A stretch of DNA of 64,000 nt from a bacterium (GTDB taxonomy: Bacteria > Actinomycetota > Acidimicrobiia > Spongiisociales > Spongiisociaceae). This document shows, piece by piece, positions 3,419 through 52,757 of this stretch; within the stretch, counting starts at the first letter, position 1, and each line of letters begins with the position of its first letter. The translations under genes were made by a program, and so were the position numbers. The stretch covers positions 32,657 to 96,656 of the forward strand of contig JAPPGV010000076.1 in the NCBI GenBank assembly GCA_028821235.1, written 5' to 3'. The notes below the pieces were generated by a model. The model had not been told where the DNA came from. It worked only from the letters and a program-made list of their open reading frames with translations, and searched no databases.

Positions 3419-4249
3419 ATGACCGCCCCGCCCGCCACCAGCATGGAGATCGTCACCACCCGCGGCGGTGTCACCGAGTTGCGCCGCCGATGGGAAGCCG
3501 AGGATCCATGGGCCTCCCTCCTGATCGTCCACGGCTTGGCAGAGCACTCGGGGCGCTACCGGAACGTCGGCGCCCGGTTGGCGGCAGCCGGTATCGACAC
3601 CCACGCCTTCGACCTCATGGGCTTCGGAGCGTCAGGGGGGACCCGGGCCGACGTAGCGCACTGGCACACCTACCTGTTCCAGCTGTCGGACAACCTGGCC
3701 CGGTTGCCGGACCGTGGCCTTCCGAGAGTGGTGCTGGGCCACTCCGTCGGGGGCCTGCTCACCATCGACTACGCCATGTCGCGCCATCGCCAACCCGATC
3801 TGGTGGTCCTCAATGCGCCCGCCGTGGACGCGGTAGTGCCGGCCTGGAAACGGAGGGCCTCCCCAATCCTGGCCGGGCTGGTTCCCACCCTGACCCTCGC
3901 CAACCCGATAGACCCCTACCAGATATTCAGTGACCCCGCCACAACCGCCGGCTACCTCGCCGACCCACTGCTGGAACCCCGCACCACGGTCCGGCTGGGC
4001 GCCCACCTGCTCAGCGCCATGGACCGGGTCACCGCATCCGTCGACCGCTTCACCGCCCCCTGCCTGCTGACGCACGGCGCGGACGACACTCTCGTGCCAC
4101 CGGCAACGAGCGTCGCGCTGGGTCGGCTTCCCAACGTCGAGCGGCGACTGTACCCGGGCACCCGGCACGCCTCCCTGCAGGAGCCGGCAGGCGGGATGAT
4201 CCTTGATGACATCGTGGCATGGATCCGGGCCATGACCGGGAACTCCTAG
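3419..4249 (+). CDS. Alpha/beta hydrolase (lysophospholipase / monoacylglycerol lipase-like)
   Basis: Oxyanion HG (LLIVHGLAEHSGRY) and nucleophile elbow GHSVGG. Internal ATG at 3419 chosen as start. Confidence 0.8.
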   Translation: MTAPPATSMEIVTTRGGVTELRRRWEAEDPWASLLIVHGLAEHSGRYRNVGARLAAAGIDTHAFDLMGFGASGGTRADVAHWHTYLFQLSDNLARLPDRGLPRVVLGHSVGGLLTIDYAMSRHRQPDLVVLNAPAVDAVVPAWKRRASPILAGLVPTLTLANPIDPYQIFSDPATTAGYLADPLLEPRTTVRLGAHLLSAMDRVTASVDRFTAPCLLTHGADDTLVPPATSVALGRLPNVERRLYPGTRHASLQEPAGGMILDDIVAWIRAMTGNS

Positions 4250-17010: not shown

Positions 17011-17751
17011 ATGGCCGGTCATTCCAAGTGGGCGAACATCAAGCACCGCAAGGGGCGGCAGGACGCCGCCCGTGGCAACCTGTTCGCCAAGCTGTGCCGC
17101 GCCGTGGAGGCCGCGGCTCGTCAGGGTGGGGGCGATCCGGCGGGCAACGCCGTGCTGGCCACCGCCATCGACAAGGCCAGGTCCGCCTCGGTGCCCAAGG
17201 ACAACATCGAACGGGCCATCAAACGCGGCACCGGAGAGCTGGTCGGCGAACGCCTCGACACGTTCTTCTACGAAGGCTACGCGCCAGGGGGAGTGGCGTT
17301 GCTGGTGCAGGCGCTCACCGACAACCGGAACCGGGCCGCCTCCGACATCCGGTCCGCCTTCACCCGGAACGGGGGCAACCTCGGCGAGCCGGGTTCCGTC
17401 GCCTACCTGTTCGACCAGAAGGGTTACCTTCTAGTAGACGGTGATGAAGACGAGATCTTGATGGCTGCCCTGGAGTCAGGCGCCGAGGACGTACGGCAGA
17501 GCGGGGACCAGTTCGAGGTGATCACGGCGCCCACCGACTTCCCGACCGTCCGGGATGCCCTGGCCAGCGCCGAGCTGTCCGTACAGTCCGCCGAGATCAC
17601 CCAGCTCCCGTCCACGACCATCCCACTGGACGCTTCGGGCGCCGCCAGGGTCCTGCGCCTGGTGGACACGCTGGACGACCTGGCCGATGTGCAAGGCGTC
17701 TACGGCAACTTCGACATCCCCGACGACTATCTCGCCACCCTGGCCGAGTAG
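17011..17751 (+). CDS. yebC: YebC/PmpR family DNA-binding regulator
   Basis: MAGHSKWANIKHRKG start. Only the 3' part of ORF 16315-17751 is used. Confidence 0.93.
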   Translation: MAGHSKWANIKHRKGRQDAARGNLFAKLCRAVEAAARQGGGDPAGNAVLATAIDKARSASVPKDNIERAIKRGTGELVGERLDTFFYEGYAPGGVALLVQALTDNRNRAASDIRSAFTRNGGNLGEPGSVAYLFDQKGYLLVDGDEDEILMAALESGAEDVRQSGDQFEVITAPTDFPTVRDALASAELSVQSAEITQLPSTTIPLDASGAARVLRLVDTLDDLADVQGVYGNFDIPDDYLATLAE

Positions 17752-17914
17752 TGGTCTGTCTGTGGAATGGCGGCGTGGTATGGCGTCGGCAGCGGTGTTC
17801 CTCGCAAGGCCCGCTGACGAAGGCGTACCCGTAGGGTACGTTGAGGAAGCGGAACGCAGCGACGGGACGCCGATGACCGCCAGATCACGCCAAGTTGTTT
17901 CGCAGACAGACCAC
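17751..17914. mobile_element. MITE-like palindromic element, copy 1 (12-bp TIR GTGGTCTGTCTG/CAGACAGACCAC, TA flanks)
   Basis: Near-identical second copy at 51001-51162. Terminal inverted repeats, central perfect hairpin CGTACCC-GTA-GGGTACG, TA on both sides (17749-50, 17915-16). Confidence 0.75.
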
Positions 17915-17932
17915 TAGCAGGTCGGCGCCGGA

Positions 17933-35801: not shown

Positions 35802-35991
35802 GCCGGGGCCGCTCCGGACCGCCGGTGCGTATCGCGCAGCGATCATCCGGGAGGCGGCCGAGGCGCTTAGTCGCCAACGGTTCGCCCATCGCGTGGCGGC
35901 CGAGGCGGCGGAACTGCGGAAGGAGCGGGCAGATTGGTCGTCCTACCTGGAGCAGGCGGAGTCGACTTCCGTTGCCGATGGCCTCGATTGA
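35773..35991 (+). CDS. Possible MazE-type antitoxin remnant (small ORF)
   Basis: Its 3' end overlaps by 14 nt the ATG (35978) of a MazF-like reading frame. Its 5' end overlaps phyH, so it may be truncated. Confidence 0.3.
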   Translation: MPTRYGRPSEPGPLRTAGAYRAAIIREAAEALSRQRFAHRVAAEAAELRKERADWSSYLEQAESTSVADGLD

Positions 35992-36150
35992 CGAACTTTG
36001 ACTCTTCGACTTCGGTGACCCATATCCCGGCGAGCCAGGATCGCACAGGCCGGCTCTGGTAGTTGGTCCACCGCGTGCTTTCGGGGCCGGATTCCCGTTC
36101 GGCATCCCTGTCATCTCGTGGGAAGTGCCGGGTAATCCCGACTCCCACCA
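35978..36150 (+). pseudogene. MazF/PemK-like toxin remnant: in-frame TGA at codon 8 and loss of the 3' half
   Basis: MASIDEL*LFDFGDPYPGEPGSHRPALVVGPP...IPVISWEVPGNPDSHQL resembles E. coli MazF GDLIWVDFDPTKGSEQAGHRPAVVLSP...VPCTT. The stop at 35999-36001 sits where the conserved Trp (TGG) is expected. Confidence 0.5.
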
Positions 36151-36907: not shown

Positions 36908-38530
36908 TCAGAGACCGATGGCACAGCCGTCGCCCCTGGGATCGGAGCCACCCCAGAGGACACCGGTCTCCGGATCGCGCACGATGATCTGCCCTCGGCC
37001 TACCACCGTTGTTCGCAGGGCGCCCGAAGCGGGACGGACGGGGTGCCCGAGTCGGGCCAGGGCGCTGATCGTGCCCTCCGGTATGGTGTCCTCGACCCAG
37101 ATCTGACCATTGGGCGGGTCGTCGTAGATCGAGAAGCGAGGCTCGTCTATGGCACTCTGGGGATCCATGCCGCGGTCCACCAGATTGATAACCGCCTGGA
37201 CGTGTCCCTGGGGCTGATTCCACGCGCCCATCACCCCGAAAGGTCCCACGAGCGACCCGTCCGGCCGGGTGAGCATGGCAGGGATGATGGTGTGGTAGGG
37301 GCGCTTCCCGCCCTCCATGGCATTGGGGTGGTCCGGTTCGAGGACGAACCCGGCGCCGCGGTTCTGCAGGCTGAACCCGCAGCCACGGGGCACGATGCCG
37401 CTTCCGAAGCCGTGATAGTTGCTGTTGATGAAGGAGCAGGCGTTCCCCTCTCCGTCGACCGTGCACAGGTAGACGGTGTCGGATCCGCCCGGCAGGTGGC
37501 CGGCGGTTGCGAACTCGATGGCGGCCTCGGAGGAGATGAGCCGGCGACGCTCCGCCGCGTACCCTTTGCTGAGCATGGCGGCGACGGGGACGCGGGCGCG
37601 GGTGGGATCCGCGATGTAGGCCCGGGCGTCGGCGAAGGCCAGGCGGACCGCCTCGATGGTCGTGTGCAACGCTTCCGGCGACCTCGGTCGGGTCGAGGGG
37701 ATGTCGAATCCCTCCAGGATGTTCAGAGCCATCAGCGCGGTGATGCCCTGGCCGTTGGGAGGACACTCGTAGACGGTGTAGCCACGGTAGGTGGTTGAGA
37801 TCGGGCTGTCGAAGGATGAACGGTGATCTCGCATGTCGTCGGCCGTCATGCAGCCACCGTTCATCTGCACAGCCTCGACGATGGCCCGCGCCGGCCACCC
37901 GCTATAGAACGCGTCGGCGCCGCCCTCCGCCACGGCGCGCATCACCCGGGCGATGGACGCGTTTCTCCACACCTCGCCTGGCCCTGGAGCACGGCCGTCG
38001 ACCAGCAGATCGTGGCCGGCAGGTCCCCTAGCCCTCAAGAGGTCTTCTTGCCCCTTCCAGCCGCCGCTGATGATGGGCGTCACCGGAAACCCGTCCTCGG
38101 CCAGCGCGATGGCCGGTGCCAGCACCTCAGCCATCGACATCCGCCCGAAGCGCTCCACGGTGTCCACCCAGCCTGCGACCGCGCCGGGCACCGTCACCGC
38201 GTGGGGTCCCTGTGGATCGAAGCCAGCCGGTCCCCCGGCCATTTCCGGTGTCAGAGCCTTGGGACTCCGTCCGCTGCCGTTGACGGCGTCGACCACACCT
38301 CGGCCGGAGTCATAGAAGAGGGCAAAGCAGTCACCGCCGATGCCCGTGGAACCCGGTTCGACCACCGCCAGCGCCGCGGCGGTGGCAACGGCGGCGTCAG
38401 CTGCATTGCCGCCCGACTGCAGCACCGAGATACCGGCCAGGGTGGCCAGCGGCTGGCTTGAGGCCACCACACCCCGCGTGGACAGGATGGGCGAGCGTCG
38501 GGACTCCCATCGGATCCGGTGTGCGTACAC
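36908..38530 (-). CDS. ggt: Gamma-glutamyltransferase
   Basis: Full-length GGT pattern with autoprocessing Thr (GGSDTVYL) and the small-subunit GGSDPRGDG motif. Confidence 0.9.
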   Translation of the reverse strand: MYAHRIRWESRRSPILSTRGVVASSQPLATLAGISVLQSGGNAADAAVATAAALAVVEPGSTGIGGDCFALFYDSGRGVVDAVNGSGRSPKALTPEMAGGPAGFDPQGPHAVTVPGAVAGWVDTVERFGRMSMAEVLAPAIALAEDGFPVTPIISGGWKGQEDLLRARGPAGHDLLVDGRAPGPGEVWRNASIARVMRAVAEGGADAFYSGWPARAIVEAVQMNGGCMTADDMRDHRSSFDSPISTTYRGYTVYECPPNGQGITALMALNILEGFDIPSTRPRSPEALHTTIEAVRLAFADARAYIADPTRARVPVAAMLSKGYAAERRRLISSEAAIEFATAGHLPGGSDTVYLCTVDGEGNACSFINSNYHGFGSGIVPRGCGFSLQNRGAGFVLEPDHPNAMEGGKRPYHTIIPAMLTRPDGSLVGPFGVMGAWNQPQGHVQAVINLVDRGMDPQSAIDEPRFSIYDDPPNGQIWVEDTIPEGTISALARLGHPVRPASGALRTTVVGRGQIIVRDPETGVLWGGSDPRGDGCAIGL

Positions 38531-38596
38531 GCTCCCAGGCTACCCAGTCGCGGAGCGCGGACTCAGGCAGCGCCAGTTCGTCGACCCGCGCAACCA

Positions 38597-39772
38597 TCAC
38601 TTAGGGCCGGCGTCATGGAGGCGCGCCCACGGCATGAGTGTCCCGTCCGAGCGGAACTGGAGATCGTCACCCCCGTACACCACCATGATGTCGGATGGGC
38701 GAGGTATGGAGGCCATGTGCCGCTGGACTGTCCTTCCGGCGCCGAAGAAGCTGGAGGACGCCGTGATCCCCGACTTGGCTTCCACGAGGGTGATCCCGTC
38801 CGGACGGTCGATCAGCAGATCGATCTCGACCCCGTTGCGATCCCGATAGAACGAGAGCCCGCCCGGCTCGCCCAGGTTGGCCCGGTGCTTGGCGATCTCG
38901 GAAACGACCCATGTCTCGAATATCGCACCCCGTAGCGGATGGGAACGCAGGTGTTCGGGCGTCCGGATGCCGAGGAGCCAGCAGACCAGGCCCGTGTCGT
39001 AGAAATGCAGTTTGGGCATCTTGACGAGCCGCTTGCGCACGTTCGAGTGGAAGGCTTGAAGCCGGAACACTACGAACCCCGCTTCGAGGACCGACAGCCA
39101 CGCCTTCGCGGTCGGCTGTGATACTCCGCAGTCGCCGGCCAGGGACGAGTAATTGAGCAACTGGGCGGTGCGTCCGGCGCACAGTTGAACGAACCGTTGG
39201 AAGGTGGCGAGATCTCCGATGCTCCTGATGGATCGGACGTCGCGTTCTATGTAGGTCGCGACGTAGGATCGGAGCCAGTCGGACGGGTCGAGGCCGCGGT
39301 CGAATATTCGGGGATAGGAGCCTGCCAGCAGTGACTCCTCAAGACCTGTCGGGTGACGGGGAAAGCGCACGATCTCCCCACGGGTCAGGGTGAACAGATT
39401 GTGGAGGGCTGTCCGACCGGCCAGCGACTGGCTTACCGCCTCCAGCAAAGCGAGATTCTGCGATCCGGTCAGGATCCAGCGTCCGGGCTCCGGATCGTCA
39501 TCGATGAGGCCTTGCAGGTACGACAGGATATGCGGTGCGCGCTGCACCTCGTCGATCACGGCGCCCTCGGATAACCCGGCCAGGAAACCACGAGGATCCG
39601 CTCTAGCGAACGCGTGCGTGTCAGGAGCTTCGAGCGTCACGTAAGCATGATCGGGGAAGAGCGTGCGGCACAGGGTGGTCTTACCGCTCTGGCGCGGTCC
39701 GGTCAGAGTGACGGACGGCATCGTCCGCGCTGCCGCGAGTACCTGCGGCGCCAGGTCCCTGTCGATCAGCAT
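38597..39772 (-). CDS. AAA ATPase (AAA_14 + DUF4143 architecture)
   Basis: Walker A GPRQSGKTT, Walker B-like AVIDEVQ, and a C-terminal DUF4143-like region (FYDTGL...). Confidence 0.8.
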   Translation of the reverse strand: MLIDRDLAPQVLAAARTMPSVTLTGPRQSGKTTLCRTLFPDHAYVTLEAPDTHAFARADPRGFLAGLSEGAVIDEVQRAPHILSYLQGLIDDDPEPGRWILTGSQNLALLEAVSQSLAGRTALHNLFTLTRGEIVRFPRHPTGLEESLLAGSYPRIFDRGLDPSDWLRSYVATYIERDVRSIRSIGDLATFQRFVQLCAGRTAQLLNYSSLAGDCGVSQPTAKAWLSVLEAGFVVFRLQAFHSNVRKRLVKMPKLHFYDTGLVCWLLGIRTPEHLRSHPLRGAIFETWVVSEIAKHRANLGEPGGLSFYRDRNGVEIDLLIDRPDGITLVEAKSGITASSSFFGAGRTVQRHMASIPRPSDIMVVYGGDDLQFRSDGTLMPWARLHDAGPK

Positions 39773-39841
39773 GCACAGCAGATTACAACCATGCTAGGCT
39801 AATTCAAAGTTTAATTTTGAAATAGCTTGGACTCGTGGCCG

Positions 39842-40006
39842 CTATGCGCTGTCTTCTTGCCAGCGGAGGACGGGGCGGCGGGCGGCAGTGTCTTCTGCCA
39901 CAAGACACCTGAGTCCCTCTTGGCCTCGTCCGCGTTGACAAATTGCGCGGCCTCTCCATGAGTCTGGGACATCGGCCTGGGTGTATTGCTCGACCACTCG
40001 GTTCTG
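39842..40006 (-). pseudogene. Orphan remnant of a gcvPB 3' end
   Basis: Minus-strand frame ends ...EDTAARRPVLRWQEDSA* compared with intact GcvPB ...DEATAARRPVLRWTSEGQ*. No gene body. Only patchy nucleotide similarity upstream of the 31-nt core. Confidence 0.55.
39860..39890. repeat. Direct repeat, left copy (att-like): CCAGCGGAGGACGGGGCGGCGGGCGGCAGTG
   Basis: 29 of 31 nt identical to 43095-43125, same orientation. Confidence 0.8.
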
Positions 40007-40110
40007 TTAGCCCCCTTCGCGCGCAGCCCGGCCACCGTGATTGCCGCTCGCTTGCATTCTCTAGGCTGCTATGCCGTACCTGACCGCCGACTGAGTCAAG
40101 GACCGGAGAA

Positions 40111-43056
40111 GTGGCTAAGGCCGAGCGGGAACTGACCTGGACAACCTCGCCGCCATCTAGGAGAGCGTTGCGTAGGCAAGGCTTCGCCGTGTTCCACTTT
40201 GCCGAGGTGCGGAACAGGCACATCGTACATGCTCGCTCAGCGACGGTCACACGTGACACGCTTGAGAACGCTGCGGCAAGCATCTTGAGATTGATGGACG
40301 GCCACGAGCGCATCGCGATTCTCGGAGTACCCGCTCGAACAAATGGGGACGTCGATGACATCTACTCTTTTCTGGTCGAGCCATCGTTCCGCCGCGACCT
40401 CACGCTACTTCTCGGCGTCGACAGGTCGTTCGACGAACTCGATCCGGTAGAACTCACGACACCGGAAATGGGATATCCATGGAGCCTCGAACGGCTTCAG
40501 TATCTAATGCGGACCTACGCCCGGAACCAGCAAAGCGATGGGATACCGCCCCTCACGCCGATCGAAGCGATCCTGCTCGGTGCTATGCGTAGTCACGGCT
40601 TGACGCCGCAGGCACAGTACGGCATCATCAAGTACCGGGTTGACTTCGCTTTCCCCGCCCAGCATCTAGTCGTCGAATGCGACGGACGCGGATGGCATGA
40701 TGCGGAGCGCGATGCCCGGCGAGACGCGCAACTCGAAGCTCTAGGCTGGAAGACCCTTCGCTTCACAGGCTCGGAGATATACCGCCGGGCGTCTGCAGTC
40801 ACGAAACAGATAGTCTCCGAGCTTGAGACGCGATCACACGTCACGACTTACACAGAACAACCCCGGGAAGCACGTCGCGCCTGGTGGCACCGAATCCTCG
40901 ATTTCTTCCTGGGCCGCCACCAGCCGCAAACCTCACTGCCCCCTCCATCGACACCTGCTTCGGAGCGCAGCGTGCCGGCCTGGAAGGCCCATCTCGACGC
41001 CGACCAGCGCCGCGCGGTTGACGGCCACGAAGGAGTAATACAGGTCATTGCGCCGGCCGGCTCCGGCAAGACCACCACCATGATCGCCCGGGTCCAGGAA
41101 CTCTTCGCGAGGGGGGCACTTGCTAACCGAATCCTGTGCACCACCTTCAACCGAGATACCCGTGTTGACCTAGAGGCTCGCCTTGAGCCGAAGGGTCTCG
41201 CCAATGTCCAAGTGAAGACGTTCCATGCGCTCGGAAGGGCCATCCTCGACCAGGAAGGCCTTCTTCGTTCGGAAATCGGCTCCATCAGTCATGGTCAGTG
41301 GCGTCGGATCGCGAAGCTAGCCAAGGATGCGGTCGAGGATGGTGTCTGGATTGACGCTCCGGTAGCGGCCGAAGTAGTGAGCAATTACAAACTATCTGAA
41401 ATGTGGGACCCGCTGACGGCTCGGCAACGAGCAGCAAACAGCTTCTACAGGACTGCCGCCGAAATCTACACCCTTTATGAGGAGCATCTGGAAGCTGCGG
41501 GACGCAATGACTTCGATGACCTGATATTCCGAGCCGTTGAGCATTTGAAGAGCAATGATGCTGCTAGACGGCGCTGGCAGGATAGATGGGAACACGTGCT
41601 AGTTGACGAGTACCAGGACATTGAGCCAGCGCAGGAGCTACTGATCCGTTTCGTAGCGGCACCGGAGGATTCTCTCTTCACCGTAGGCGACGAGGATCAA
41701 TGCATTTACACATGGCGGCGGGCCAGCGTCGAGCGCATTGTGATGTTGGACACAAAGTACCCGGGTCTTCAGCGCGTCGTGTTGAGCACCTCGTATCGCT
41801 GCCCACCCGTGGTCACCGACGCCGCCCGGAGTCTTATCAGCAACAACAGACGTCGTTTCCCCAAGGAGATTCTACCGAGTCCCAACCGGAAGGGGTTAGG
41901 TGAGATTGAGCTTCGGATTACCGAGAGCCTTGCCGCGGGTGCTCATGAGACCACGACCTTGCTGAAGGAACATGACGGGCCACCCGGCGAGATAGTGGTG
42001 TTGGCGCGCACCAGCCGTTTGCTACGCGCCGTTGTACGCGCATGTGCAGAACAGGGGGTAGCTGTCAATGCGCCACGTCAGTCGCTGCGCCTCACTGATT
42101 CGGAGAAGACCGTGCTCGCCTATCTGCGAGTTGTGTCGTCGCCTAGGAGCGCCCAGGCCGAAGACATCAAACGTTCTTTTCGTGTCCCCAACCGCTACCT
42201 CCGCGACGGCGACCAGCACCGGATTCGGCAAGCTCTCGGCGATCGGCTCTCCTTCGCCGGGGCGGTGGAATCGATCGGCGCTACCGGTTCAGAGGAGTGG
42301 CGCACCAGGGGACAGCGGGAATGGGCACAGCTATGTCAGGAACTCAGGACCGCTGCTGATGCCACCGCCGCCATGAAGCTCCTTCGAACTTCCGGGGGGC
42401 TCGACCGTCACTACATGAGCGTCGACCAGTTGTCCCGCCACGATCAGTACGAGGTAGAAGCGCTAGAGGACATCCAGGACGCAGCAACAGGCCGGAGCCT
42501 GTTCGAGTTGGTCACACACCTCGAAAGCCGCGCGTTGTTGCTAAACCAGGATCGGAACAGCCAAGGAGGCAAGGACGCGATCGAGCTAAACACAATCCAT
42601 CGGGCAAAGGGACGCGAGTGGGACACGGTCATTCTGTTCGGCGCCGACGATGATCAGCTTCCCCACCGTCGAACGGTACTCGAAGCTGAGAGCGAGGAAG
42701 AGTTGGAGGTAGCCATAGAGGACGAGCGACGCCTGGCCTATGTCGCCATCACGCGAACCCGCCACAAGCTCGTGCTTGTCACGACCGGAGTTCCCAGCCC
42801 GTACCTGCGTGAGGCAGGTATCACTCAGTCGGCTGGAGCCCTTCCAACACGCGCCAGCCTCCTTGAGTCGCGTGGATCATCGCATCCCTCGCGGGACTCT
42901 GCCTCACCGACAGTTCAAGCGCAGTATCGCACCATATGCCATAACTGCGGTCGGCCCATCGAGCCCGGAAACCCGATCAGGAGATTTGGTGACGGCTGGG
43001 CACACGACCAGTGTGACCGTCACAGGCCCCGTCTCCGTCACGAAGCTCCGTTCTGA
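40111..43056 (+). CDS. Fusion protein: unknown N-terminal region + DUF559 (Vsr-like) endonuclease domain + UvrD/Rep SF1 helicase + C-terminal Cys/His zinc-ribbon-like motif
   Basis: DUF559: YRVDFAFPAQHLVVECDGRGWH...LGWKTLRF. Helicase motifs APAGSGKTT, VLVDEYQD, GDEDQCIYTWRRA, SYRC, IHRAKGREWD, YVAITRTRHKL. C-terminus: CHNCG...HDQC. The GTG start is uncertain. Confidence 0.85.
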   Translation: MAKAERELTWTTSPPSRRALRRQGFAVFHFAEVRNRHIVHARSATVTRDTLENAAASILRLMDGHERIAILGVPARTNGDVDDIYSFLVEPSFRRDLTLLLGVDRSFDELDPVELTTPEMGYPWSLERLQYLMRTYARNQQSDGIPPLTPIEAILLGAMRSHGLTPQAQYGIIKYRVDFAFPAQHLVVECDGRGWHDAERDARRDAQLEALGWKTLRFTGSEIYRRASAVTKQIVSELETRSHVTTYTEQPREARRAWWHRILDFFLGRHQPQTSLPPPSTPASERSVPAWKAHLDADQRRAVDGHEGVIQVIAPAGSGKTTTMIARVQELFARGALANRILCTTFNRDTRVDLEARLEPKGLANVQVKTFHALGRAILDQEGLLRSEIGSISHGQWRRIAKLAKDAVEDGVWIDAPVAAEVVSNYKLSEMWDPLTARQRAANSFYRTAAEIYTLYEEHLEAAGRNDFDDLIFRAVEHLKSNDAARRRWQDRWEHVLVDEYQDIEPAQELLIRFVAAPEDSLFTVGDEDQCIYTWRRASVERIVMLDTKYPGLQRVVLSTSYRCPPVVTDAARSLISNNRRRFPKEILPSPNRKGLGEIELRITESLAAGAHETTTLLKEHDGPPGEIVVLARTSRLLRAVVRACAEQGVAVNAPRQSLRLTDSEKTVLAYLRVVSSPRSAQAEDIKRSFRVPNRYLRDGDQHRIRQALGDRLSFAGAVESIGATGSEEWRTRGQREWAQLCQELRTAADATAAMKLLRTSGGLDRHYMSVDQLSRHDQYEVEALEDIQDAATGRSLFELVTHLESRALLLNQDRNSQGGKDAIELNTIHRAKGREWDTVILFGADDDQLPHRRTVLEAESEEELEVAIEDERRLAYVAITRTRHKLVLVTTGVPSPYLREAGITQSAGALPTRASLLESRGSSHPSRDSASPTVQAQYRTICHNCGRPIEPGNPIRRFGDGWAHDQCDRHRPRLRHEAPF

Positions 43057-43076
43057 GTCTTTGGTAACCCCTAGGG

Positions 43077-44558
43077 CTACTGCCCCTCCGAGGTCCAGCG
43101 GAGTACGGGGCGGCGGGCGGCTGTGGCCTCGTCGAGGCGGCCTATGGGTGCGGTCCAGGGGGCATGGTGCAGGGTGTCGGGATCGCTCTCGGCCTCCTTC
43201 GCGACCGAGATGAGGGCTTCGACCAGCGCTTCGATCGCCTCGGGAGGCTCGGACTCGGTGGGCTCGATCATCAGGGCCTCCTCGACGATCAACGGGAAGT
43301 AGACCGTCGGCGGGTGGAAACCGTGGTCGATCAGGCGCTTGGCGATGTCGTAGGTTCGCACCCCGAGCTCCCGGCGCTGGCGGGAGCCGGAGAACACCAC
43401 CTCATGCAGCACCGGACGGTCGTACGGCAGGTCGTAGTGGCCATGGAGCAGGGCGCGCACGTAGTTGGCGTTTAGCACCGCCTGGCCGGAGGCGGCGCGC
43501 AGGCCGTCGAGCCCCAACGCCCGCATGTACGCATAGGCGCGGACCAGGACCGCCGCGTTGCCCTGGAACTGCTGGAGCCGGCCGATGCTGCGCGCGGGCG
43601 CGACCAGGTGCACGAGACCGTCATCGCCCTCCTCCACCATCGGCGTAGGCAGGTACAGGGCCAGTTCCTCGGAGCACAATACGGGTCCGGCGCCCGGGCC
43701 GCCGCCACCGTGGGGGGTGCTGAAGCTCTTGTGGAGGTTTAGGTGGACGACATCGAAACCCAGGTCCCCGAAGCGCACGCGGCCCATGATCGCGTTGAAG
43801 TTCGCCCCGTCCCCGTACAGGTACCCGCCGGCGTCATGGATGAGCTCGGCCACCTCCTCGATGCCTTGCTCCCACAGCCCGAGGGTGTTGGGCGCGGTGA
43901 CCATGACGGCCGCCACGGTCTCGTCGAGCTCTCGCTCGATCGTGGCCCTGTCGAGCGAGCCGTCGGCGCCGGTCGGGATCTGGGTGACCTTGAATCCCGC
44001 CATGGTCGCCGTCGCCGGGTTGGTGCCGTGGGCCGAGTCCGGAACGAGGATGCGGCGGCGGGTCTCGAGCTCTCCCCGATCCTCGAGCGCGCGAGCCACC
44101 ATGAGAACACCTGCCAACTCTCCGTGTGCGCCCGCGGCAGGGGCGAAGCTGACATTCGGAAGGCCGGTGAGCTCGCCCAGACCACGACCCAGCTCCAACT
44201 GGACCCACAGCGTGCCCTGTACGTCCTCCTCCCGGGCCTGGGGATGTGCCCGGGCGAACCCCGGAAGGGAGGCCACCGTGTCGTTGACCTTCGGGTTGTA
44301 CTTCATGGTGCAGGAGCCCAGCGGATACGTACCGGAGTCGATGCCGAAGTTCCGCGCCGACATTGCCGTGTAGTAGCGCACCAGCCCTCCCTGGCTGAGC
44401 TCGGGCAATCGCACCGAGTCGCGCAGCAGGTGATCGTCCGGCAGAGGAGCCTCCTCCCCCGCCCACGAGGGCACGTCGACCGCTCGACGGCCCGGTTCTC
44501 CGCGGTCGAAGCTCAGGCGCGCTCCGAAGTCGGCTACGCCAGGTCCGGAGCCGCTCAC
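43077..44558 (-). CDS. gcvPB: Glycine dehydrogenase (decarboxylating), subunit 2
   Basis: PLP-lysine block NLHKSF and family-wide pattern. 4-nt overlap with gcvPA. Confidence 0.95.
   Translation of the reverse strand: MSGSGPGVADFGARLSFDRGEPGRRAVDVPSWAGEEAPLPDDHLLRDSVRLPELSQGGLVRYYTAMSARNFGIDSGTYPLGSCTMKYNPKVNDTVASLPGFARAHPQAREEDVQGTLWVQLELGRGLGELTGLPNVSFAPAAGAHGELAGVLMVARALEDRGELETRRRILVPDSAHGTNPATATMAGFKVTQIPTGADGSLDRATIERELDETVAAVMVTAPNTLGLWEQGIEEVAELIHDAGGYLYGDGANFNAIMGRVRFGDLGFDVVHLNLHKSFSTPHGGGGPGAGPVLCSEELALYLPTPMVEEGDDGLVHLVAPARSIGRLQQFQGNAAVLVRAYAYMRALGLDGLRAASGQAVLNANYVRALLHGHYDLPYDRPVLHEVVFSGSRQRRELGVRTYDIAKRLIDHGFHPPTVYFPLIVEEALMIEPTESEPPEAIEALVEALISVAKEAESDPDTLHHAPWTAPIGRLDEATAARRPVLRWTSEGQ
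43095..43125. repeat. Direct repeat, right copy (inside the gcvPB 3' end): CCAGCGGAGTACGGGGCGGCGGGCGGCTGTG
   Basis: See 39860-39890. Confidence 0.8.
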
Positions 44559-45913
44559 GCCTCTCCCCCGATCTCTGCCAGCGCCCCGATCAACGCGTCT
44601 ACGTGCGCATCGGGAGTCGCCTCGGTCACGGCGAACAGCAGGGCATCGCGCGCCTCGGGCTCCGGCCGCCCCGACACGTCGAGGCCCGCTCCGATGCCGC
44701 GCTCGGCCAGCTGAGCCACCAGTTCGGCGGCGGGGATGGGCCCTCGAACGAGGAACTCCTGGAGCCAGGGCCCGCGTTCGGGTGTCTCGTAACCGGGCAG
44801 CGCCGCGATGCGGGAGGCGGCGTCGTGGGCGCGCTGGTAGCAGAGCACGGCGGAGTCGCGTAGACCGCTCGGGCCCAGCCCCTGGACGGTGATGGTGAAG
44901 GCGACCGCTATCAAGGCTTGCGCGGTGGACACGTTCGACGTGGCCCGCTCCCTCCGGATGAACTGCTCGCGGGCCTGGAGGGTGAGCACGTACCCGGTGC
45001 GTTGGTATCCGCTGCCGTTCCCGTCGGCGAGTTCTCTGGTCCGTCCGACGATGCGACCCGGCATCTGCCTCAAGTACTTGGTGCGCGCGGCGAACAAACC
45101 GAGGGACGGCCCGCCGTAGTTGGGAGGACCGGCCAGGTCACGGCCCTCGCCGGTCACGATGTCGGCGCCGGCATCGCCCGGCGCCCGTAGCAGGCCCAGC
45201 GCGAACGGGTCGGCGACCGCCACGAACAGCGCCCCGACCGCATGGGCAGCATCGGCGAGCGGTTCGAGGTCCACGATGGTTCCGAGGAAGTCCGGTTGCT
45301 GGGCTACCAGGCAGGCGTGCTCTTGACCGATCGCATCGGGCGACGGAACTTGATCAACGGCCAGCCCGGCGCCGTGCGCGTAGGTGCGAACCACTTCGGC
45401 GGTTCCGGGATGGATGGGTTCTAGCAGCGCGACGGTCCTCCGCTTCGTGACCCGGGCCGCCAGCAGGCAGGCCTCGGCGGTGGCGCTGGCCACGTCGTAG
45501 AGCCCGGCGTTGGAGACGTCCATGCCGGTCAGCTCGCAGACGACCGACTGGTACTCGAACGCGGCCTGCAGGGTCCCCTGGCTGATCTCCGGCTGGTAGG
45601 GCGTGTAGGAGGTGGCGAACTCGGAACGTGAGGTCAGGTATCCGGTGATGGCCGGGATGGAGCGCCGGTAAGCACCCGCGCCCAGAAAGTCGGGCCGTGA
45701 CGGCGGCGCGTTGGCGGCGGCGCGCTCCTCCATCAACGCGATCAGATCCGCCTCCGGTAGGGCGGGTGGGAGGTGGATCGCCGGGTCCCGCATGGCTGCG
45801 GGCAGGTCGGCAAAGAGGGCGCCCACATCGGGGGCTCCGATCCGCTCCAGCATCCGCGCCCGGTCCGCCTCCGTGGCCGGGATGTAGGGATGCGGTGAGG
45901 GCCGCGCAGGCAT
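44555..45913 (-). CDS. gcvPA: Glycine dehydrogenase (decarboxylating), subunit 1
   Basis: Typical PYIP..E..R..ML..IG N-terminus. Start at internal Met (45913), just downstream of the gcvH stop. Confidence 0.93.
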   Translation of the reverse strand: MPARPSPHPYIPATEADRARMLERIGAPDVGALFADLPAAMRDPAIHLPPALPEADLIALMEERAAANAPPSRPDFLGAGAYRRSIPAITGYLTSRSEFATSYTPYQPEISQGTLQAAFEYQSVVCELTGMDVSNAGLYDVASATAEACLLAARVTKRRTVALLEPIHPGTAEVVRTYAHGAGLAVDQVPSPDAIGQEHACLVAQQPDFLGTIVDLEPLADAAHAVGALFVAVADPFALGLLRAPGDAGADIVTGEGRDLAGPPNYGGPSLGLFAARTKYLRQMPGRIVGRTRELADGNGSGYQRTGYVLTLQAREQFIRRERATSNVSTAQALIAVAFTITVQGLGPSGLRDSAVLCYQRAHDAASRIAALPGYETPERGPWLQEFLVRGPIPAAELVAQLAERGIGAGLDVSGRPEPEARDALLFAVTEATPDAHVDALIGALAEIGGEA

Positions 45914-45920
45914 CAGCGTC

Positions 45921-46328
45921 TCAGTGGTCCTCAAGCAGCGTCCGGTAGGCGGACGCGTCGAGCAGGTCTTCGAGTTGTGCCGCATCGGCCATGCGGACGC
46001 GGATCATCCAGCCGTCTCCGTAGGGAGAGTCGTTGACCAGCTCCGGCTGGTCTTCGAGGTCCCCGTTGACGGCGACCACCTCGCCATCCACCGGGGCGTA
46101 GAGGTCGGAGACCGTCTTGGCCGATTCGATCTCGCCGCAGGCCTCACCCGCGGTGACCCGGTCCCCTTCGGTGGGAAGCTCCAGGTACACCACGTCACCC
46201 ACCCCGTCCTGGGCGAAGTCCGTGATGCCGATGACGCCCTCGTCCGGCTTCTCCTCGTCACGGCGAAGCCACTCGTGTTCCTCCGAGTAGAAGAGGTTGT
46301 CCGGAATCTCGAAATCGGCCTTCATCAC
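45921..46328 (-). CDS. gcvH: Glycine cleavage system H protein
   Basis: Lipoyl-lysine motif EIESAKTVSDLYAP. Confidence 0.95.
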   Translation of the reverse strand: MMKADFEIPDNLFYSEEHEWLRRDEEKPDEGVIGITDFAQDGVGDVVYLELPTEGDRVTAGEACGEIESAKTVSDLYAPVDGEVVAVNGDLEDQPELVNDSPYGDGWMIRVRMADAAQLEDLLDASAYRTLLEDH

Positions 46329-47440
46329 TCCCTCGACTTTCTGTAGAACGGACGGCGAACGACTTCGACCGGGAGCATACGCCCGCGCACATCGACTTCG
46401 AACCGGGCGCCGGTCTTCGCAAGCTCCACGGGAAGGTAGGCCATGCCGATGCCGAGACGCAAGCTCGGGCTGAAGCTTCCGCTGGTGAGCCGAGCCACGG
46501 GGTCGCCGCCTTCCGGAGCGTGCACGGCGTAGCCCGACCGCAGTACGCCGCGCCCGCGCGCCTCGAGGTGGGCGAGCCGCCGTGTCCGGGGTCGCCCCCG
46601 CGCCTCGACCAGCGCATCGCGCCCTGTAAATGGCGCACCGTCATCGAGGGTCACCGCAAAACCCAGGCCGGCGTCGTAGGGGCTCGTCTCCGCGTCCAGA
46701 TCGTTGCCGTACAGGGGCAGCGCAGCCTCCAGGCGCAGCGTGTCCCGCGCCCCGAGACCCGCCGGCGATGCCCCTCCCTCGATCAGCGCATCCCACAACG
46801 CCGCGGCCTGCGCGAGCCCGACTACGCACTCGCCGCCGTCCTCGCCCGTATAGCCGGTGCGGGCGAACATGACCTGCCCACCGTCCCAGTCGAGTTCCAC
46901 GCAGGAGCGCATCTCGAGCCCCTCTACGGCGGGCCCGAGGACCGTGCTCAGAAGCGACAACGCGTCCGGACCCTGCACGGCCAGCATCGCGGTCTCAGCG
47001 GTGATCTCGGAGGCCTCGTCGCCGAACACGGACCGGAGCCGGTCGAAGTCCTGCTCGGCGTTGGAAGCGTTGTGGACGACCGCCCACCGCTCTCCGGCCA
47101 GCCGGTAGACGAACACGTCATCATCGATGCCCCCGGCCTCGTTGCAGTAGAGCGAGTAGTGCGCCTTGCCGGGCACGAGCCCGGTCACATCGAAGGTGGT
47201 CACCGATCTGAGCAGCGGCCCCGCCTGCGATCCCTGCACCAGGGCCCGGCCGAGGTGAGAGACATCGAAGACCCCCACCCCTTCGCGTACGGCATGGTGC
47301 TCGCCGACTATCCCCTGGTACTGGAGCGGCATCTCCCAGCCGGCGAAGGGTGCGAAGCGGGCGCCGAGGGCTTCGTGCCGGTCCCGCAGGGTTAGCTGTC
47401 TGAGCCTGCGTCCGGCGCCCGAACCGCCGTCTTCTGTCAC
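46325..47440 (-). CDS. gcvT: Aminomethyltransferase (glycine cleavage T protein)
   Basis: FAGWEMPLQY, DVSHLG, ARDTLRLEA motifs. Confidence 0.95.
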   Translation of the reverse strand: MTEDGGSGAGRRLRQLTLRDRHEALGARFAPFAGWEMPLQYQGIVGEHHAVREGVGVFDVSHLGRALVQGSQAGPLLRSVTTFDVTGLVPGKAHYSLYCNEAGGIDDDVFVYRLAGERWAVVHNASNAEQDFDRLRSVFGDEASEITAETAMLAVQGPDALSLLSTVLGPAVEGLEMRSCVELDWDGGQVMFARTGYTGEDGGECVVGLAQAAALWDALIEGGASPAGLGARDTLRLEAALPLYGNDLDAETSPYDAGLGFAVTLDDGAPFTGRDALVEARGRPRTRRLAHLEARGRGVLRSGYAVHAPEGGDPVARLTSGSFSPSLRLGIGMAYLPVELAKTGARFEVDVRGRMLPVEVVRRPFYRKSRE

Positions 47441-49708: not shown

Positions 49709-51001
49709 GTGAGCACCGACTATCCGCAGCCCCGGTCTCCCTCGAAGATCTCCCGCGCCACCCGGGCCGTGGGCCGCAAGATCGAGGGGCAGTTCTCACG
49801 ACACGGCTGGGCCTTCCGGCGACTGGCTATCTCCCATGCCACGAACGTGGCCGGAGACGCCCTGGTGGCCCTGGCCCTGGCCGACACGCTGTTCTTCTCG
49901 GTGCCCACCACGGAGGCTCGGGGCAATGTGGTTGCCTTCCTTCTCCTCACCCTGGCACCCTTCGCCGTGATCGGACCCGTGCTCGGGTCGCTGGTCCACC
50001 GGCTGCCTCGCAGCCACCGGGCCGGCCTGGCCGTCGGATCGTTGGGGCGGGTGGTGCTGGTGATCGCCATGATGCGGGCGGAGACCGACGTAGTGATGCT
50101 GTCGATGGTGTTCGGGATCCTGGTGCTGTCCCGGATCTACGGGATCAGCCGCAGCTCGATCCTGCCGACCGCGCTACCCGATCCGGCCGATCTGGTGGAG
50201 GCCAATGCCCGCCTCGCCCGGCTCGGAATCCTCGCCGGGGGCGCCATCCTCCCGATCGGGCTGGGCGCCATCAACCTGGTGGGAAACACGGCTGCGCTCG
50301 TGCTGGCAGCCTGCATCTTCGCCTGGTCGGGCATCGCCGCTCTTGGTCTTCGGGTCGACCTCAGGCCGGCCGCCCGGCATCCGGGCGCGGAGGGGTTCCG
50401 CGCCGCCCGCTCCCCCGCCTCCCGGCGGGCGGTCCGCCACGCCCGCATAGCCACCGCCATCGTCCGCCTCCTGAACGGCTACCTCCTCCTCCTGGTGGCT
50501 TTCGTGTTCCGCGACAACGAGGCGGGAATCGTGGGATTCGGCAGCCTGCTGCTCGCCGCCGGCGCCGGCTTCGGCGTGGCATCGCTGCTGGCCCAGTTCC
50601 TGGCTCGGCGCCTTCGTGAGGAACCGATGGTGGTGGCGGCCCTGGCCCTGGAGGCGGCCGCCGCGTTCATCAGCGCCCATGTGTTCGGGGTCTGGTCGGC
50701 GGCGGCCGTGGCCTTCTTCGCCGGGCTCGCCTGGGGAACGGCCAAGTTCGGATACGACGGTCTGCTCCACGCCAGCGTCAGGCCCGAGGAACGGGGCCGG
50801 ACGTTCACATATTCGGAGACCCTCTTCCAACTCGCCTGGGTGGTGGGGGCGGTCATTCCCGTGCTGGTGCGCATCCCCGCCACGCTCGGGCTGATCCTGG
50901 CCGGATGTGCGGCGCTACTGGCCCAGGTGGTCCTGGTCAGCGCCCTACTGATCTCGATGGCCGAGCCCGCCGATACGGACCCCTACGGCATCCATCGTTA
51001 G
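49709..51001 (+). CDS. MFS-type transporter (about 12 TM)
   Basis: Hydrophobicity pattern in two six-helix halves. GTG 49709 chosen to clear the divergent aldolase gene. The stop TAG is shared with the MITE end. Confidence 0.6.
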   Translation: MSTDYPQPRSPSKISRATRAVGRKIEGQFSRHGWAFRRLAISHATNVAGDALVALALADTLFFSVPTTEARGNVVAFLLLTLAPFAVIGPVLGSLVHRLPRSHRAGLAVGSLGRVVLVIAMMRAETDVVMLSMVFGILVLSRIYGISRSSILPTALPDPADLVEANARLARLGILAGGAILPIGLGAINLVGNTAALVLAACIFAWSGIAALGLRVDLRPAARHPGAEGFRAARSPASRRAVRHARIATAIVRLLNGYLLLLVAFVFRDNEAGIVGFGSLLLAAGAGFGVASLLAQFLARRLREEPMVVAALALEAAAAFISAHVFGVWSAAAVAFFAGLAWGTAKFGYDGLLHASVRPEERGRTFTYSETLFQLAWVVGAVIPVLVRIPATLGLILAGCAALLAQVVLVSALLISMAEPADTDPYGIHR

Positions 51002-51162
51002 TGGTCTGTCTGTGGTATGGCGGTGTGGTATGGCGTCGCCAGCGGTGTTCCTCGCAAGGCGCGCTGACGAAGGCGTACCCGCAGCGGTACGTTGAGGAAG
51101 CGGAACGCGCGACGGGACGCCGATGGCCGCCATAGCACCCGGTTGTGGCGCAGACAGACCAC
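51001..51162. mobile_element. MITE-like palindromic element, copy 2
   Basis: Same TIRs and TA flanks (50999-51000, 51163-64) as copy 1. Roughly nine differences over the first ~130 nt by hand alignment; the last ~25 internal nt diverge. Confidence 0.75.
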
Positions 51163-52757
51163 TAGTTCCGCCTTCCGCGTTCCTCGAATATCCGCTGGAT
51201 CTGCTGGATGGTGTCGGCCTGGTCGGGCGGCTTGTCGGGCCGGTACTGCTTGACGCGGGCGAAGCGGAGCGCAACCCCGCCCGGATACACCGGGCTCGAC
51301 TGGACGCCGTCGAACGCCACCTCGACCACCACCTCCGGCCGTACGAGCACGACATGGCGTTCCCGGCGGACCGCGATCTCGAGAAACCGCTCGGTCTGCC
51401 AGGCGAGCATCGCATCGGTCAGGCCCTTGAAGGTCTTTCCCACCATCACGAACCCTTCGCTCTCTACGTCCCTGGCGCCCAGGTGCAGGTTGGAGAGCCG
51501 CCCGGTCCGGCGCCCGTGGCCCCATTCGGCGGCCAGCACCACCAGGTCGAGGTGATAAGCCGGCTTGACCTTGAGCCAGGCCGATCCCCTCCGGCCCGCT
51601 TGGTAGGTGGAGCCGATCGCCTTGACCATGATCCCTTCGTGGCGGCTCCGGCGGGCCTCCGACAGAGCGCCCTCGGCTTCCAGGACCCGGTCGGTCACCA
51701 GCCTGGGTACCCGGCATCCGGCAGGGACCAGATTGTCGAGCACGGAGATGCGCCGGCCGAGGGGGAGGTCGATCAGGTCCTCGCCGTCGAGATGCAGGAT
51801 GTCGAAGAAGTACGGGTACAGCGGCTTCCTGTCGCCTTCCTCGTGGGTGCCGAAGTGGCTCATGATCTGCTCGAAACGCTCCGGCCGGCCCTCGACGTCA
51901 TGGGCCAGAACCTCTCCGTCGAGCACCACGCTCGTGACGGGAAGACCGGATACCACCTCTGCCACCAGCGGCAGCCGATCGGTGACGTCGTTGAGCCGCC
52001 GGCTGAACACCGCCACCTCCGAACCGGCCCGGTGCGCCTGGATGCGGACGCCGTCGAGCTTCCACTCCACCGACGCCCGGCCGGACGACTCCATCGCATC
52101 GGCGGCCGACCCCGAGGTCGAGGCCAGCATGGGCCGGACCGGCCGCAGCGGAACGATGCGCATCGCCCGCAGCGCGGCCTCTCCTTCAGTGAGGGCCGGA
52201 ACGGCGATCGATCCGAGATCGCCGCCGAGCATGGCGGCCCGCCTCACCACCGCGGAATCGATGCCCGAAGCCGCCGCCACCGCGTCCATCATGAGGCCCT
52301 CGAGTGCTCCGTGCCGGAGCTCTCCGGTGAGCAGCCGCCGCAGGTAGTCCTGCTCGTCAGCGGTGGCTCTACCGAGCAGGGACTCGAGCAGGTCGGTCCT
52401 GCGAGCCCGGGAACCGGGGCCCTTGATCCCCGGGAAAGCACCTATCACCCGATCGACCTCCACGATGTCGAGGATCGGTTCCGGGGCGGGATCGACCTTC
52501 GACGCCCACAGCGCGGCCGGGCCTACACCGATGCGTCCCTGGCGCGGCCGGCCGGCCAGGAACCCGACCAGGATCCGTATCTCGTCAGGCCTCGCTCCGG
52601 CAAGGAGTTCGGCCAGGCCGGCCACCTTGGCGCGCCGCGCCCTGGTGCCTGCGATCTTCTGCGACGTAGCTACCACCTCGGCAAGTCTCAACCGCGCCTC
52701 CGATCGACCTACGGCCGGGTTTTCGGCCCGAAATTTACTCGTGAAACGCCCGGCCAT
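51162..52757 (-). CDS. ligB: ATP-dependent DNA ligase
   Basis: Adenylation motif I EWKLDGVR, plus motifs III-V and an OB-fold region. The stop codon (CTA on the plus strand, 51162-51164) is formed by the last MITE base plus the TA flank. Confidence 0.9.
   Translation of the reverse strand: MAGRFTSKFRAENPAVGRSEARLRLAEVVATSQKIAGTRARRAKVAGLAELLAGARPDEIRILVGFLAGRPRQGRIGVGPAALWASKVDPAPEPILDIVEVDRVIGAFPGIKGPGSRARRTDLLESLLGRATADEQDYLRRLLTGELRHGALEGLMMDAVAAASGIDSAVVRRAAMLGGDLGSIAVPALTEGEAALRAMRIVPLRPVRPMLASTSGSAADAMESSGRASVEWKLDGVRIQAHRAGSEVAVFSRRLNDVTDRLPLVAEVVSGLPVTSVVLDGEVLAHDVEGRPERFEQIMSHFGTHEEGDRKPLYPYFFDILHLDGEDLIDLPLGRRISVLDNLVPAGCRVPRLVTDRVLEAEGALSEARRSRHEGIMVKAIGSTYQAGRRGSAWLKVKPAYHLDLVVLAAEWGHGRRTGRLSNLHLGARDVESEGFVMVGKTFKGLTDAMLAWQTERFLEIAVRRERHVVLVRPEVVVEVAFDGVQSSPVYPGGVALRFARVKQYRPDKPPDQADTIQQIQRIFEERGRRN

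Follow-up and report, generated by a model that had tools for sequence, protein, structure and literature searches.

A single-gene genomic islet without an integrase, probably inserted site-specifically at the 3' end of gcvPB in an acidimicrobial genome

The gcvPB gene, which encodes glycine dehydrogenase subunit 2, is located in the analysed stretch of an acidimicrobial genome (Spongiisociaceae; assembly GCA_028821235.1, contig JAPPGV010000076.1; 64,000 nt, referred to below as the window) downstream of gcvPA and gcvT, and it converges with a gene for a 981-aa nuclease-helicase, which lies between two direct copies of a 31-nt sequence that is also the 3' end of gcvPB. The left copy (39860-39890) reads CCAGCGGAGGACGGGGCGGCGGGCGGCAGTG and the right copy (43095-43125) reads CCAGCGGAGTACGGGGCGGCGGGCGGCTGTG; they are identical at 29 of the 31 positions and show a weak extension to 36 nt. 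With up to 3 mismatches allowed, just these two copies are found in the 64-kb window, and none occurred in 100 shuffles. The right copy belongs to the intact gcvPB gene (GcvP2_C in Pfam) and encodes the C-terminus ...ATAARRPVLRWTSEGQ. For the left copy the same reading direction gives ...TAARRPVLRWQEDSA, with the stop codon at 39842-39844 and no gene body. The 3,204 bp between the copies have a GC content of 60.3%, with a third-position GC content (GC3) of 0.67 in the helicase gene; the respective values for gcvPB are 69% and 0.87, and by its composition the insert is thus foreign to its surroundings. Only one credible gene is present in this insert, and its stop codon is separated by 20 nt from that of gcvPB. 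Domains of the DUF559, UvrD and AAA types are the only ones recognised in its product. The other open reading frames (ORFs) of the insert overlap the helicase gene in other frames, and the one tested gave no Pfam match. An earlier inspection of the same DNA by eye and by ORF translation (below, the sequence-only reading) had described the repeat pair, the intact and the orphan gcvPB end, and the single-gene insert of lower GC content, and our analysis confirmed all three. The Rfam search revealed no tmRNA, tRNA or other match in the window, and the generic promoter and terminator scan yielded nothing informative. The features of the locus are collected in Table 1, in which the 31-nt repeat is called the core and its copies are compared to the attachment (att) sites of integrated elements.

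Table 1. Features of the gcvPB locus (window coordinates)
Feature	Position	Strand	Remarks
Accessory ATPase unit, separate from the islet	38584-39827	-	hairpin 39794-39831 and AAA_14/DUF4143 gene 38597-39772
Orphaned native gcvPB tail and stop	39842-39859	-	CAA GAA GAC AGC GCA TAG = QEDSA*
Left core copy (attR-like)	39860-39890	-	gcvPB-end mimic carried by the element, fused to the former gene end
5' region of the element	39891-40110	+	blocks conserved between helicase alleles A and B
Cargo nuclease-helicase gene	40111-43056	+	981 aa; Pfam, PADLOC and PDB matches, alignment, AlphaFold/Foldseek
Spacer between the convergent helicase and gcvPB stops	43057-43076		20 nt; equivalent spacer present in L081
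Substitute gcvPB tail from the element	43077-43094	-	ACC TCG GAG GGG CAG TAG = TSEGQ*
Right core copy (attL-like)	43095-43125	-	codons ...TAARRPVLRW of the intact gcvPB; bases at both polymorphic positions native-like
Target gene gcvPB (glycine dehydrogenase subunit 2), intact	43077-44558	-	Pfam; protein MDE0375931.1

The closest homologue of the nuclease-helicase, P0002 (81-83% aa identity), is encoded at loci L081-L084 of a sister genome, the flanks of which are 94-96% identical to the window. The alignment of 18 homologues (40-83% identity) revealed a conserved N-terminal domain (approximately aa 1-145), which is followed by a DUF559/REase_MTES_1575 nuclease domain of the Vsr-like PD-(D/E)xK type (aa 157-238, Pfam), a UvrD/PcrA-type superfamily 1 (SF1) helicase domain (approximately aa 294-894, Pfam), and a C-terminal zinc ribbon (C943, C946, H965 and C968, CxxC...H..C). 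D178, E189, D191, the Walker A motif GSGKT, the DEYQD motif and the four zinc-ribbon residues are invariant in all 18 sequences. For the AlphaFold model (predicted local distance difference test, pLDDT, 77) Foldseek identified UvrD, PcrA and Rep as the top matches (E ~1e-33), with weaker matches to AdnAB, AddAB and RecB; the PDB sequence search retrieved PcrA, Rep and UvrD as well as a weak match to GajB, and the GajB-type models of PADLOC match the helicase core (E 5e-61). The GTG start codon of the window gene aligns with the ATG of its L081 homologue, and the dN/dS ratio (nonsynonymous to synonymous substitutions) between these two alleles is 0.20, which indicates purifying selection on the gene.

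More distant homologues (45-63% identity) are neighbours of BREX, type I and type III restriction-modification systems, GmrSD, KAP NTPase, HEPN proteins and large helicases; at one of the helicase homologue loci (L097) the GmrSD-like and DUF2075-like neighbours were judged by eye. Around four of the homologues (L085, L093, L094 and L095) we found neither flanking direct repeats of at least 20 nt nor a gene-end duplication, and gcvPB is not among their neighbours. Since homologues occupy defence islands without flanking repeats, the protein is better regarded as cargo than as a mobility engine, and its domain composition and neighbourhoods suggest that it is probably a stand-alone anti-phage nuclease-helicase. 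Literature searches returned nothing useful on defence functions of DUF559+UvrD proteins or on DUF4143. The option raised in the sequence-only reading, that the nuclease-helicase itself contributes to mobility, received no support from these loci or from the protein, in which only nuclease, SF1 helicase and zinc-ribbon features are seen. The sequence-only reading had also proposed a search for homologues flanked by duplicated gene ends; the L081 allele, which lies between two core copies (K1 and K2), is such a case, and the four loci just mentioned are not.

Comparison with relatives, whose GcvPB proteins are 83-94% identical to that of the window (best genome match: OZ244720.1, GcvPB 83%), defines the insert sharply. 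The homology of the gcv operon to L001, L081, L103 and L100 ends exactly at 43095, and the breakpoints of the presence/absence difference are 43095 and 39890. Empty sites are directly observed: in L103 (GcvPB 94%, tail QENSE*) and in L100-102 (GcvPB 87%, tail QDGS*) the GGT gene follows directly after gcvPB, with neither the helicase nor the ATPase, and L090 and L088 (approximately 88% identical at the nucleotide level) have no helicase and carry the ATPase unit elsewhere. The order gcvPB-GGT, as in L103 and L100, is the ancestral one. In L081, the gcv operon of which also contains gcvH, the order is GGT, core K1, helicase, degenerate core K2, ATPase and core K3, the last being the gcvPB end; here gcvPB (...RWQEDST*) runs straight into the ATPase unit, and this stretch is 96% identical to window 38613-39890. 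It corresponds to the empty site next to the ATPase that the sequence-only reading had predicted. Three observations that could have spoken against an insertion turned out otherwise: a single core copy is present at every helicase-free locus (L103, L100, L090 and L088), so relatives without the helicase do not carry both copies; the difference between presence and absence is exactly the 3.2-kb unit, with no larger recombinase-bearing element as the owner of both repeats; and the 31-mer is not a common GC-rich repeat, as shown by its two copies in the window and by the rarity of its pattern in metagenomes. A degenerate 24-nt version of the core was found at 5 metagenome loci, 4 of which are gcvPB 3' ends and 1 a chance match, and viral contigs contain no match to this pattern and none to the helicase protein. 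In one metagenome contig (Ga0209810_1000107, locus L092) positions 3496-3519 match the 24-nt pattern exactly, in the same form as the K2 variant; this match lies within an unrelated ORF (a signal-peptide region by eye) and was rejected as a real core, being attributed to chance in GC-rich DNA.

The two different tails that follow the core copies indicate which of the gcvPB ends is the original one. Across 40 relatives, the stretch behind ...RRPVLRW is hypervariable in both sequence and length (2 to 31 aa). Of the 71-member cluster of GcvPB proteins (90% identity) to which the window protein belongs, 15 members were listed, and among these TSEGQ* occurs in this genome alone, the remainder being of the Q[ED][DG]S type. 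Tails in use that resemble the orphan QEDSA* include QEDST* in L081, QENSE* in L103, QEDS* in L090 and L088, and QGNGE* in L001. None of the relatives examined has TSEGQ, or the IPGLE tail found beside the L081 helicase, as a native tail. Since all listed cluster tails except that of the window are of the Q[ED][DG]S type, QEDSA* is the native tail and TSEGQ* came with the insert; the comparison thus identifies QEDSA* on the left copy as the stranded native end of gcvPB and bears out the earlier suggestion of an insertion into the gcvPB 3' end with a replacement C-terminus. With so much natural variation in the GcvPB tail behind RRPVLRW, an insertion at this site would be harmless. An unrelated replacement is seen in L104 (contig ctg125687_115x_l, 11441-12197), where two small ORFs resembling a RelE/ParE-type toxin-antitoxin pair (by eye; no Pfam match recorded) directly adjoin gcvPB, the product of which (P0154) thereby ends in a tail of 31 residues; here, too, the gcvPB tail evidently tolerates replacement. 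This long-tailed GcvPB was considered as another core-flanked insertion and rejected, since the adjoining DNA is the toxin-antitoxin pair and no second core is present.

The L081 locus provides an independent allele of the same unit at another core copy. Window 39855-43130 aligns to L081 9748-13070 at 81.7% identity over the unit including the cores, and the helicase coding sequences of the two alleles (A and B) are 84% identical at the nucleotide level, with a synonymous divergence (dS) of 0.48. The flanking genes of the window and L081 differ far less (dS 0.06 for GGT, 0.08 for the ATPase and 0.19 for gcvPA and gcvPB). The L081 unit is placed one slot further from gcvPB, between cores of its own, K1 and K2 (a repeat of 48 nt at 92% identity), and beside the 3' end of its helicase gene it has its own 18-nt substitute tail, IPGLE*, which matches TSEGQ* in position and partly in sequence. 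The L081 array, with its degenerate K2 core, also contains two spacer haplotypes, one with QDGS* and a hairpin and one with QEDS*. From the dS of 0.48 in the unit against 0.06-0.19 in the flanks it follows that this integrase-less unit has undergone at least one insertion or exchange at a core after the divergence of the two alleles, and its own cores, its own tail and its different slot characterise it as a discrete unit with an att-like site.

The region upstream of the helicase gene supports the unity of the element. In the window it contains a promoter-like pair of hexamers, TTGACA (39935-40) and ATGAGT (39958-63), spaced by 17 nt, and an AAGGA ribosome-binding site. Approximately 25 nt upstream of the helicase start it also contains a 24-nt block, TAGGCTGCTATGCCGTACCTGACC (40062-85), which is shared by both alleles in 22 of its 24 positions and could be a regulatory element. 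The region as a whole is just about 60-65% identical between alleles A and B, yet these blocks are conserved; we infer that the element carries its own promoter upstream of the helicase, one that the generic promoter scan did not call. A hairpin with a perfect 7-bp stem (39888-39908, GTGTCTT-CTGCCAC-AAGACAC) shares its first bases with the final three of the left core and otherwise lies in the insert; the L081 allele does not conserve it.

In both helicase alleles a gcvPB-like stretch (31 nt in the window, 48 nt in L081) is found at a distance of 74-75 nt from the conserved TTGACAA box, and such constant spacing across diverged alleles marks the core, i.e. the att-like sequence, as part of the element itself. 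The two single-nucleotide polymorphisms (SNPs) between the window cores agree with this assignment. The left core has G at position 10 and A at position 28, where the native cores of close relatives have T and either T or G, respectively, and the right core has the native bases at both positions. Since the left-core SNPs are foreign and those of the right core native, the exchange is mapped to the 9 nt CTCCGCTGG beside the tails. The L081 partner sequences share one identical run, which consists of the same 9 nt, CTCCGCTGG; the inference of the crossover point is weaker there, because K2 may have decayed after the event.

With moderate confidence we regard the segment as a discrete, integrase-less, single-gene genomic islet that was inserted site-specifically by a recombinase acting in trans. 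The islet unit consists of one core copy plus 39891-43094, i.e. 3,235 bp. Its free, presumably circular form would comprise the promoter-bearing gene for the DUF559 nuclease and UvrD-type helicase, an attP-like sequence of 31-48 nt that mimics the 3' end of gcvPB and is followed directly by five substitute codons and a stop, and a short spacer that leads on to the stop codon of the helicase gene. An insertion of the Campbell type would result from a single reciprocal crossover of this mimic with the gcvPB end in the chromosome, within CTCCGCTGG (codons L-R-W); in the present arrangement gcvPB reads through the right core into TSEGQ*, and the left core sits on the stranded QEDSA*. Because no recombinase is encoded in the unit, the site-specific enzyme would have to come in trans, presumably from a helper element elsewhere, and the islet would resemble a cis-mobilizable element in its behaviour, stacked with other accessory genes in a small hotspot between gcvPB and GGT.

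Several points weigh against this interpretation. Domains of a recombinase, transposase or relaxase were found neither in the insert, in agreement with what the sequence-only reading had noticed, nor in the 24 other window ORFs scanned (25 ORFs in all, mainly from 2.7-7 kb and 21-47 kb of the window), and no related integrase-bearing element appeared in the viral contigs or among the 104 fetched loci. A circular or excised form was not seen; the 3.5-kb contig L084, which was considered as a candidate for it, shows the integrated context and was rejected. The core has no obvious dyad symmetry and no known att architecture. The crossover point was derived from just two SNPs of the window cores and, in L081, from a K2 copy that has possibly decayed. 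Furthermore, the history of the L081 array, in which other rearrangements were involved, is not fully reconstructable, and the unit is displayed by just two genomic lineages.

The rival explanation that survives best needs no dedicated recombinase at all. Here the host RecA would have acted either through a Campbell-type event in the 31-48-nt patch or through a double crossover, with gcvPB as the long left arm and the core as the short right arm. The missing recombinase would thereby be accounted for, and a patch of 31-48 nt at 92-94% identity is close to the minimum length for RecA. The divergence between the window (36908-47440) and L081 is also mosaic, GGT and the ATPase (dS 0.06-0.08) being far closer than gcvPA and gcvPB (0.19), and relative to L100 the gcv genes are 77% and GGT 92% identical; such a mosaic across the gcv-GGT interval indicates frequent homologous exchange, as this explanation expects. 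However, both mapped crossovers fall into the terminal 9-nt run and not into the longer identical run of 17 nt, and the two partner sequences in L081 (K2-left and K1-left) share only about 75-80% of their positions, differ by an indel and have identical runs of at most 9 nt, which makes them poor substrates unless K2 decayed later. The presence of a gene-end mimic and a substitute tail within the unit would also be left without explanation. We therefore consider the RecA route doubtful, if the most serious competitor of the trans-acting recombinase.

A broader view, which we find rather unlikely, treats the whole gcvPB-GGT interval as a cassette platform, in which units composed of a promoter, a gcvPB-end mimic and a substitute tail would be inserted, excised and re-ordered at any core copy by a recombinase from elsewhere or by a recruited host enzyme. 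Such a platform would be functionally integron-like, with anti-phage cargo on the 3' end of a housekeeping gene, and, bolder still, the nuclease-helicase may aid its own integration.

Alternatively, the segment could be a fossil, i.e. the remnant of a larger integrase-bearing island that decayed in place to one gene and both att sites, so that the unit as such never moved. Cis-mobilizable elements (CIMEs) are defined as arising by such decay (PMC5704250), and the region has indeed suffered deletions, as witnessed by the gene truncated at window 35821 and by the absence of a core between the ATPase and GGT. This explanation is nonetheless unlikely, since one and the same minimal unit, unchanged in its boundaries and in its core-promoter spacing, occurs as two alleles (dS 0.48) at different core copies within flanks of dS 0.06-0.19, and an insertion or exchange after the split of the alleles counts against decay in place. 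Quite improbable, in our estimate, is an illegitimate, homology-facilitated recombination, in which the helicase would be a natural neighbour of gcvPB in the donor and the other end would have been joined 31 nt before the end of the recipient gene. One-sided homology events do produce duplications of this kind, the adjacent ATPase unit was inserted without a core or a target duplication, and a different, longer duplication of the gcvPB end surrounds a methyltransferase gene in L011; but a left core derived from the recipient would then be expected, and both of its SNPs are foreign to the native cores of close relatives, the core of the L081 allele is situated at the same distance from the promoter, and TSEGQ or IPGLE is native in no relative. 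The weakest candidate, a single-protein self-inserting element mobilised by the nuclease-helicase, is very improbable: the protein is the only one encoded and combines DNA-cutting and unwinding domains with a zinc ribbon that could read sequence, but its homologues (45-63%) reside in defence neighbourhoods, the four non-gcvPB loci lack flanking repeats and gene-end duplications, the best structural matches are UvrD, PcrA, Rep, AdnAB and AddAB with no recombinase, HUH or transposase fold, and PD-(D/E)xK nucleases are not known to carry out conservative reciprocal exchange.

In staphylococci, the staphylococcal cassette chromosome (SCC) elements insert at the 3' end of rlmH (orfX), and their arrays include pseudo-SCC elements without ccr, which rely on CcrAB in trans. 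Like the islet proposed here, they integrate into the final codons of a protein-coding housekeeping gene, which is not inactivated, and have direct repeats at both ends (the parallel to SCC is drawn in PMC3146451); the phylum, target and cargo differ, and no ccr homologue was identified here. The CIMEs of the ICESt1 family in Streptococcus, which retain att sites, lack the genes for integration and transfer, and accrete at the 3' end of the target gene (PMC5704250), resemble the islet in having attL and attR derived from the target 3' end and neither integrase nor transfer genes, in being stacked with other accessory DNA, and in a mobility for which a trans-acting recombinase is presumably required. 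In contrast to them, the islet is just 3.2 kb long with one cargo gene, a related integrase-bearing element is not known, the target is the protein-coding gcvPB, to which a new coding tail would be supplied, and any descent by decay from an integrative and conjugative or integrative and mobilizable element (ICE/IME) would be hypothetical. In Dehalococcoides, tandem islands with 20-bp repeats of the ssrA 3' end are moved by a CcrB-like serine recombinase, and some of them, devoid of an integration module, have been read as cis-mobilizable elements (PMC3146451). These strain-specific islands of low GC content share with the islet the short direct repeat of a single-copy housekeeping 3' end and, in part, the absence of the integration module. 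They differ in their target (ssrA, i.e. tmRNA), the 20-bp repeat, the typical size of 10-30 kb and the DsiB/DsiA serine-recombinase module; among the window ORFs scanned there is no DsiB-like gene and no resolvase/recombinase domain.

The cargo itself can be compared with Gabija, since its helicase core matches the GajB models of PADLOC and its homologues are found in defence islands. Unlike Gabija, the cargo has no GajA partner, contains its own N-terminal DUF559 nuclease and C-terminal zinc ribbon, and is apparently a single-gene system. A Gabija locus was therefore rejected: the neighbouring gene encodes an AAA_14/DUF4143 ATPase (PDC-S01), which was inserted separately and is absent at the other helicase loci. 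An integron cassette was rejected too, since the repeats are direct and coding, GTTRRRY boxes and a palindrome are lacking, the promoter-like region is conserved and no integrase is found in the ORFs scanned. A transposon or insertion sequence does not fit, as there is no transposase and no terminal inverted repeat among the 19 inverted pairs, and a target duplication made by such an element was rejected on the grounds that the repeat is 31-48 nt long, contains SNPs and continues into a different tail. An integrative mobile element exploiting Xer (IMEX) was rejected by inspection of the core, which is GC-rich and coding and shows neither dyad symmetry nor dif-like arms. What is new here is the target gene, the minimal single-gene size, the substitute coding tail encoded by the element, and the cargo family.

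With these results gcvPB joins the housekeeping genes that are known to receive insertions at their 3' ends, and the site is a safe one because the protein tail is naturally unconstrained. The islet represents a very clean natural example of a unit that is integrase-less and limited to a single gene and yet has undergone insertion or exchange more than once, and with it the question of who moves integrase-less defence islets becomes testable. The recurrence of the cargo family in defence islands also makes it a candidate for a new anti-phage system.

The accessory ATPase gene next to the islet (AAA_14/DUF4143 in Pfam; PDC-S01 in PADLOC, E 2e-101) has a history of its own. In both the window and L081 its unit replaces 80 nt of the gcvPB-GGT spacer seen in L103, in L090 and L088 it follows the stop codon of PhyH at a distance of 34 nt, and L103 and L100 do not have it. 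Neither a target duplication nor terminal repeats were found for it. The comparison of these loci characterises the ATPase as a movable accessory unit, inserted separately and without involvement of the core. A model in which the QEDS* tail would have arrived with the ATPase, as another cassette with a core, was rejected, because L103 shows that QENSE*/QEDS* is native and that the ATPase unit simply takes the place of 80 nt of the gcvPB-GGT spacer, without a core being involved.

A second variable slot is found next to PhyH, where the window (approximately 35821-36106) contains a small, 5'-truncated antitoxin-like gene at 35821; the same slot is occupied by intact toxin-antitoxin pairs (Phd/PIN, PemK) in L081 (6150-6950) and L103 (13049-14322).

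Orphan gcvPB ends downstream of gcvPB were sought in 80 genomes and were found in L011 alone (Chloroflexia metagenome-assembled genome, JBAURA010000144.1, 11128-12290). There, an insert of 1 kb directly after gcvPB contains a single ORF, by eye an S-adenosylmethionine (SAM)-dependent methyltransferase, and is followed by a decayed orphan of at least the last 100 nt of gcvPB (approximately 80-83% identical, with an internal stop). Since this duplication exceeds that of the islet in length and extends over the tail, it may have arisen by a different mechanism.

Finally, an intergenic element of approximately 168 nt is dispersed in these genomes (window 17749-17917 and 50999-51165, L081 5100-5266; 90-94% identity among the copies). 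With its terminal inverted repeats (TAGTGGTCTGTCTG...CAGACAGACCACTA) it folds into one long hairpin; it has no match in Rfam and looks like a miniature inverted-repeat transposable element (MITE) or a repetitive extragenic palindromic (REP) element. Its predicted folding energy is -108.9 kcal/mol (z -10.9) for the plus strand and -78.4 kcal/mol (z -5.4) for the minus strand, and this asymmetry hints at a structure formed at the RNA level.

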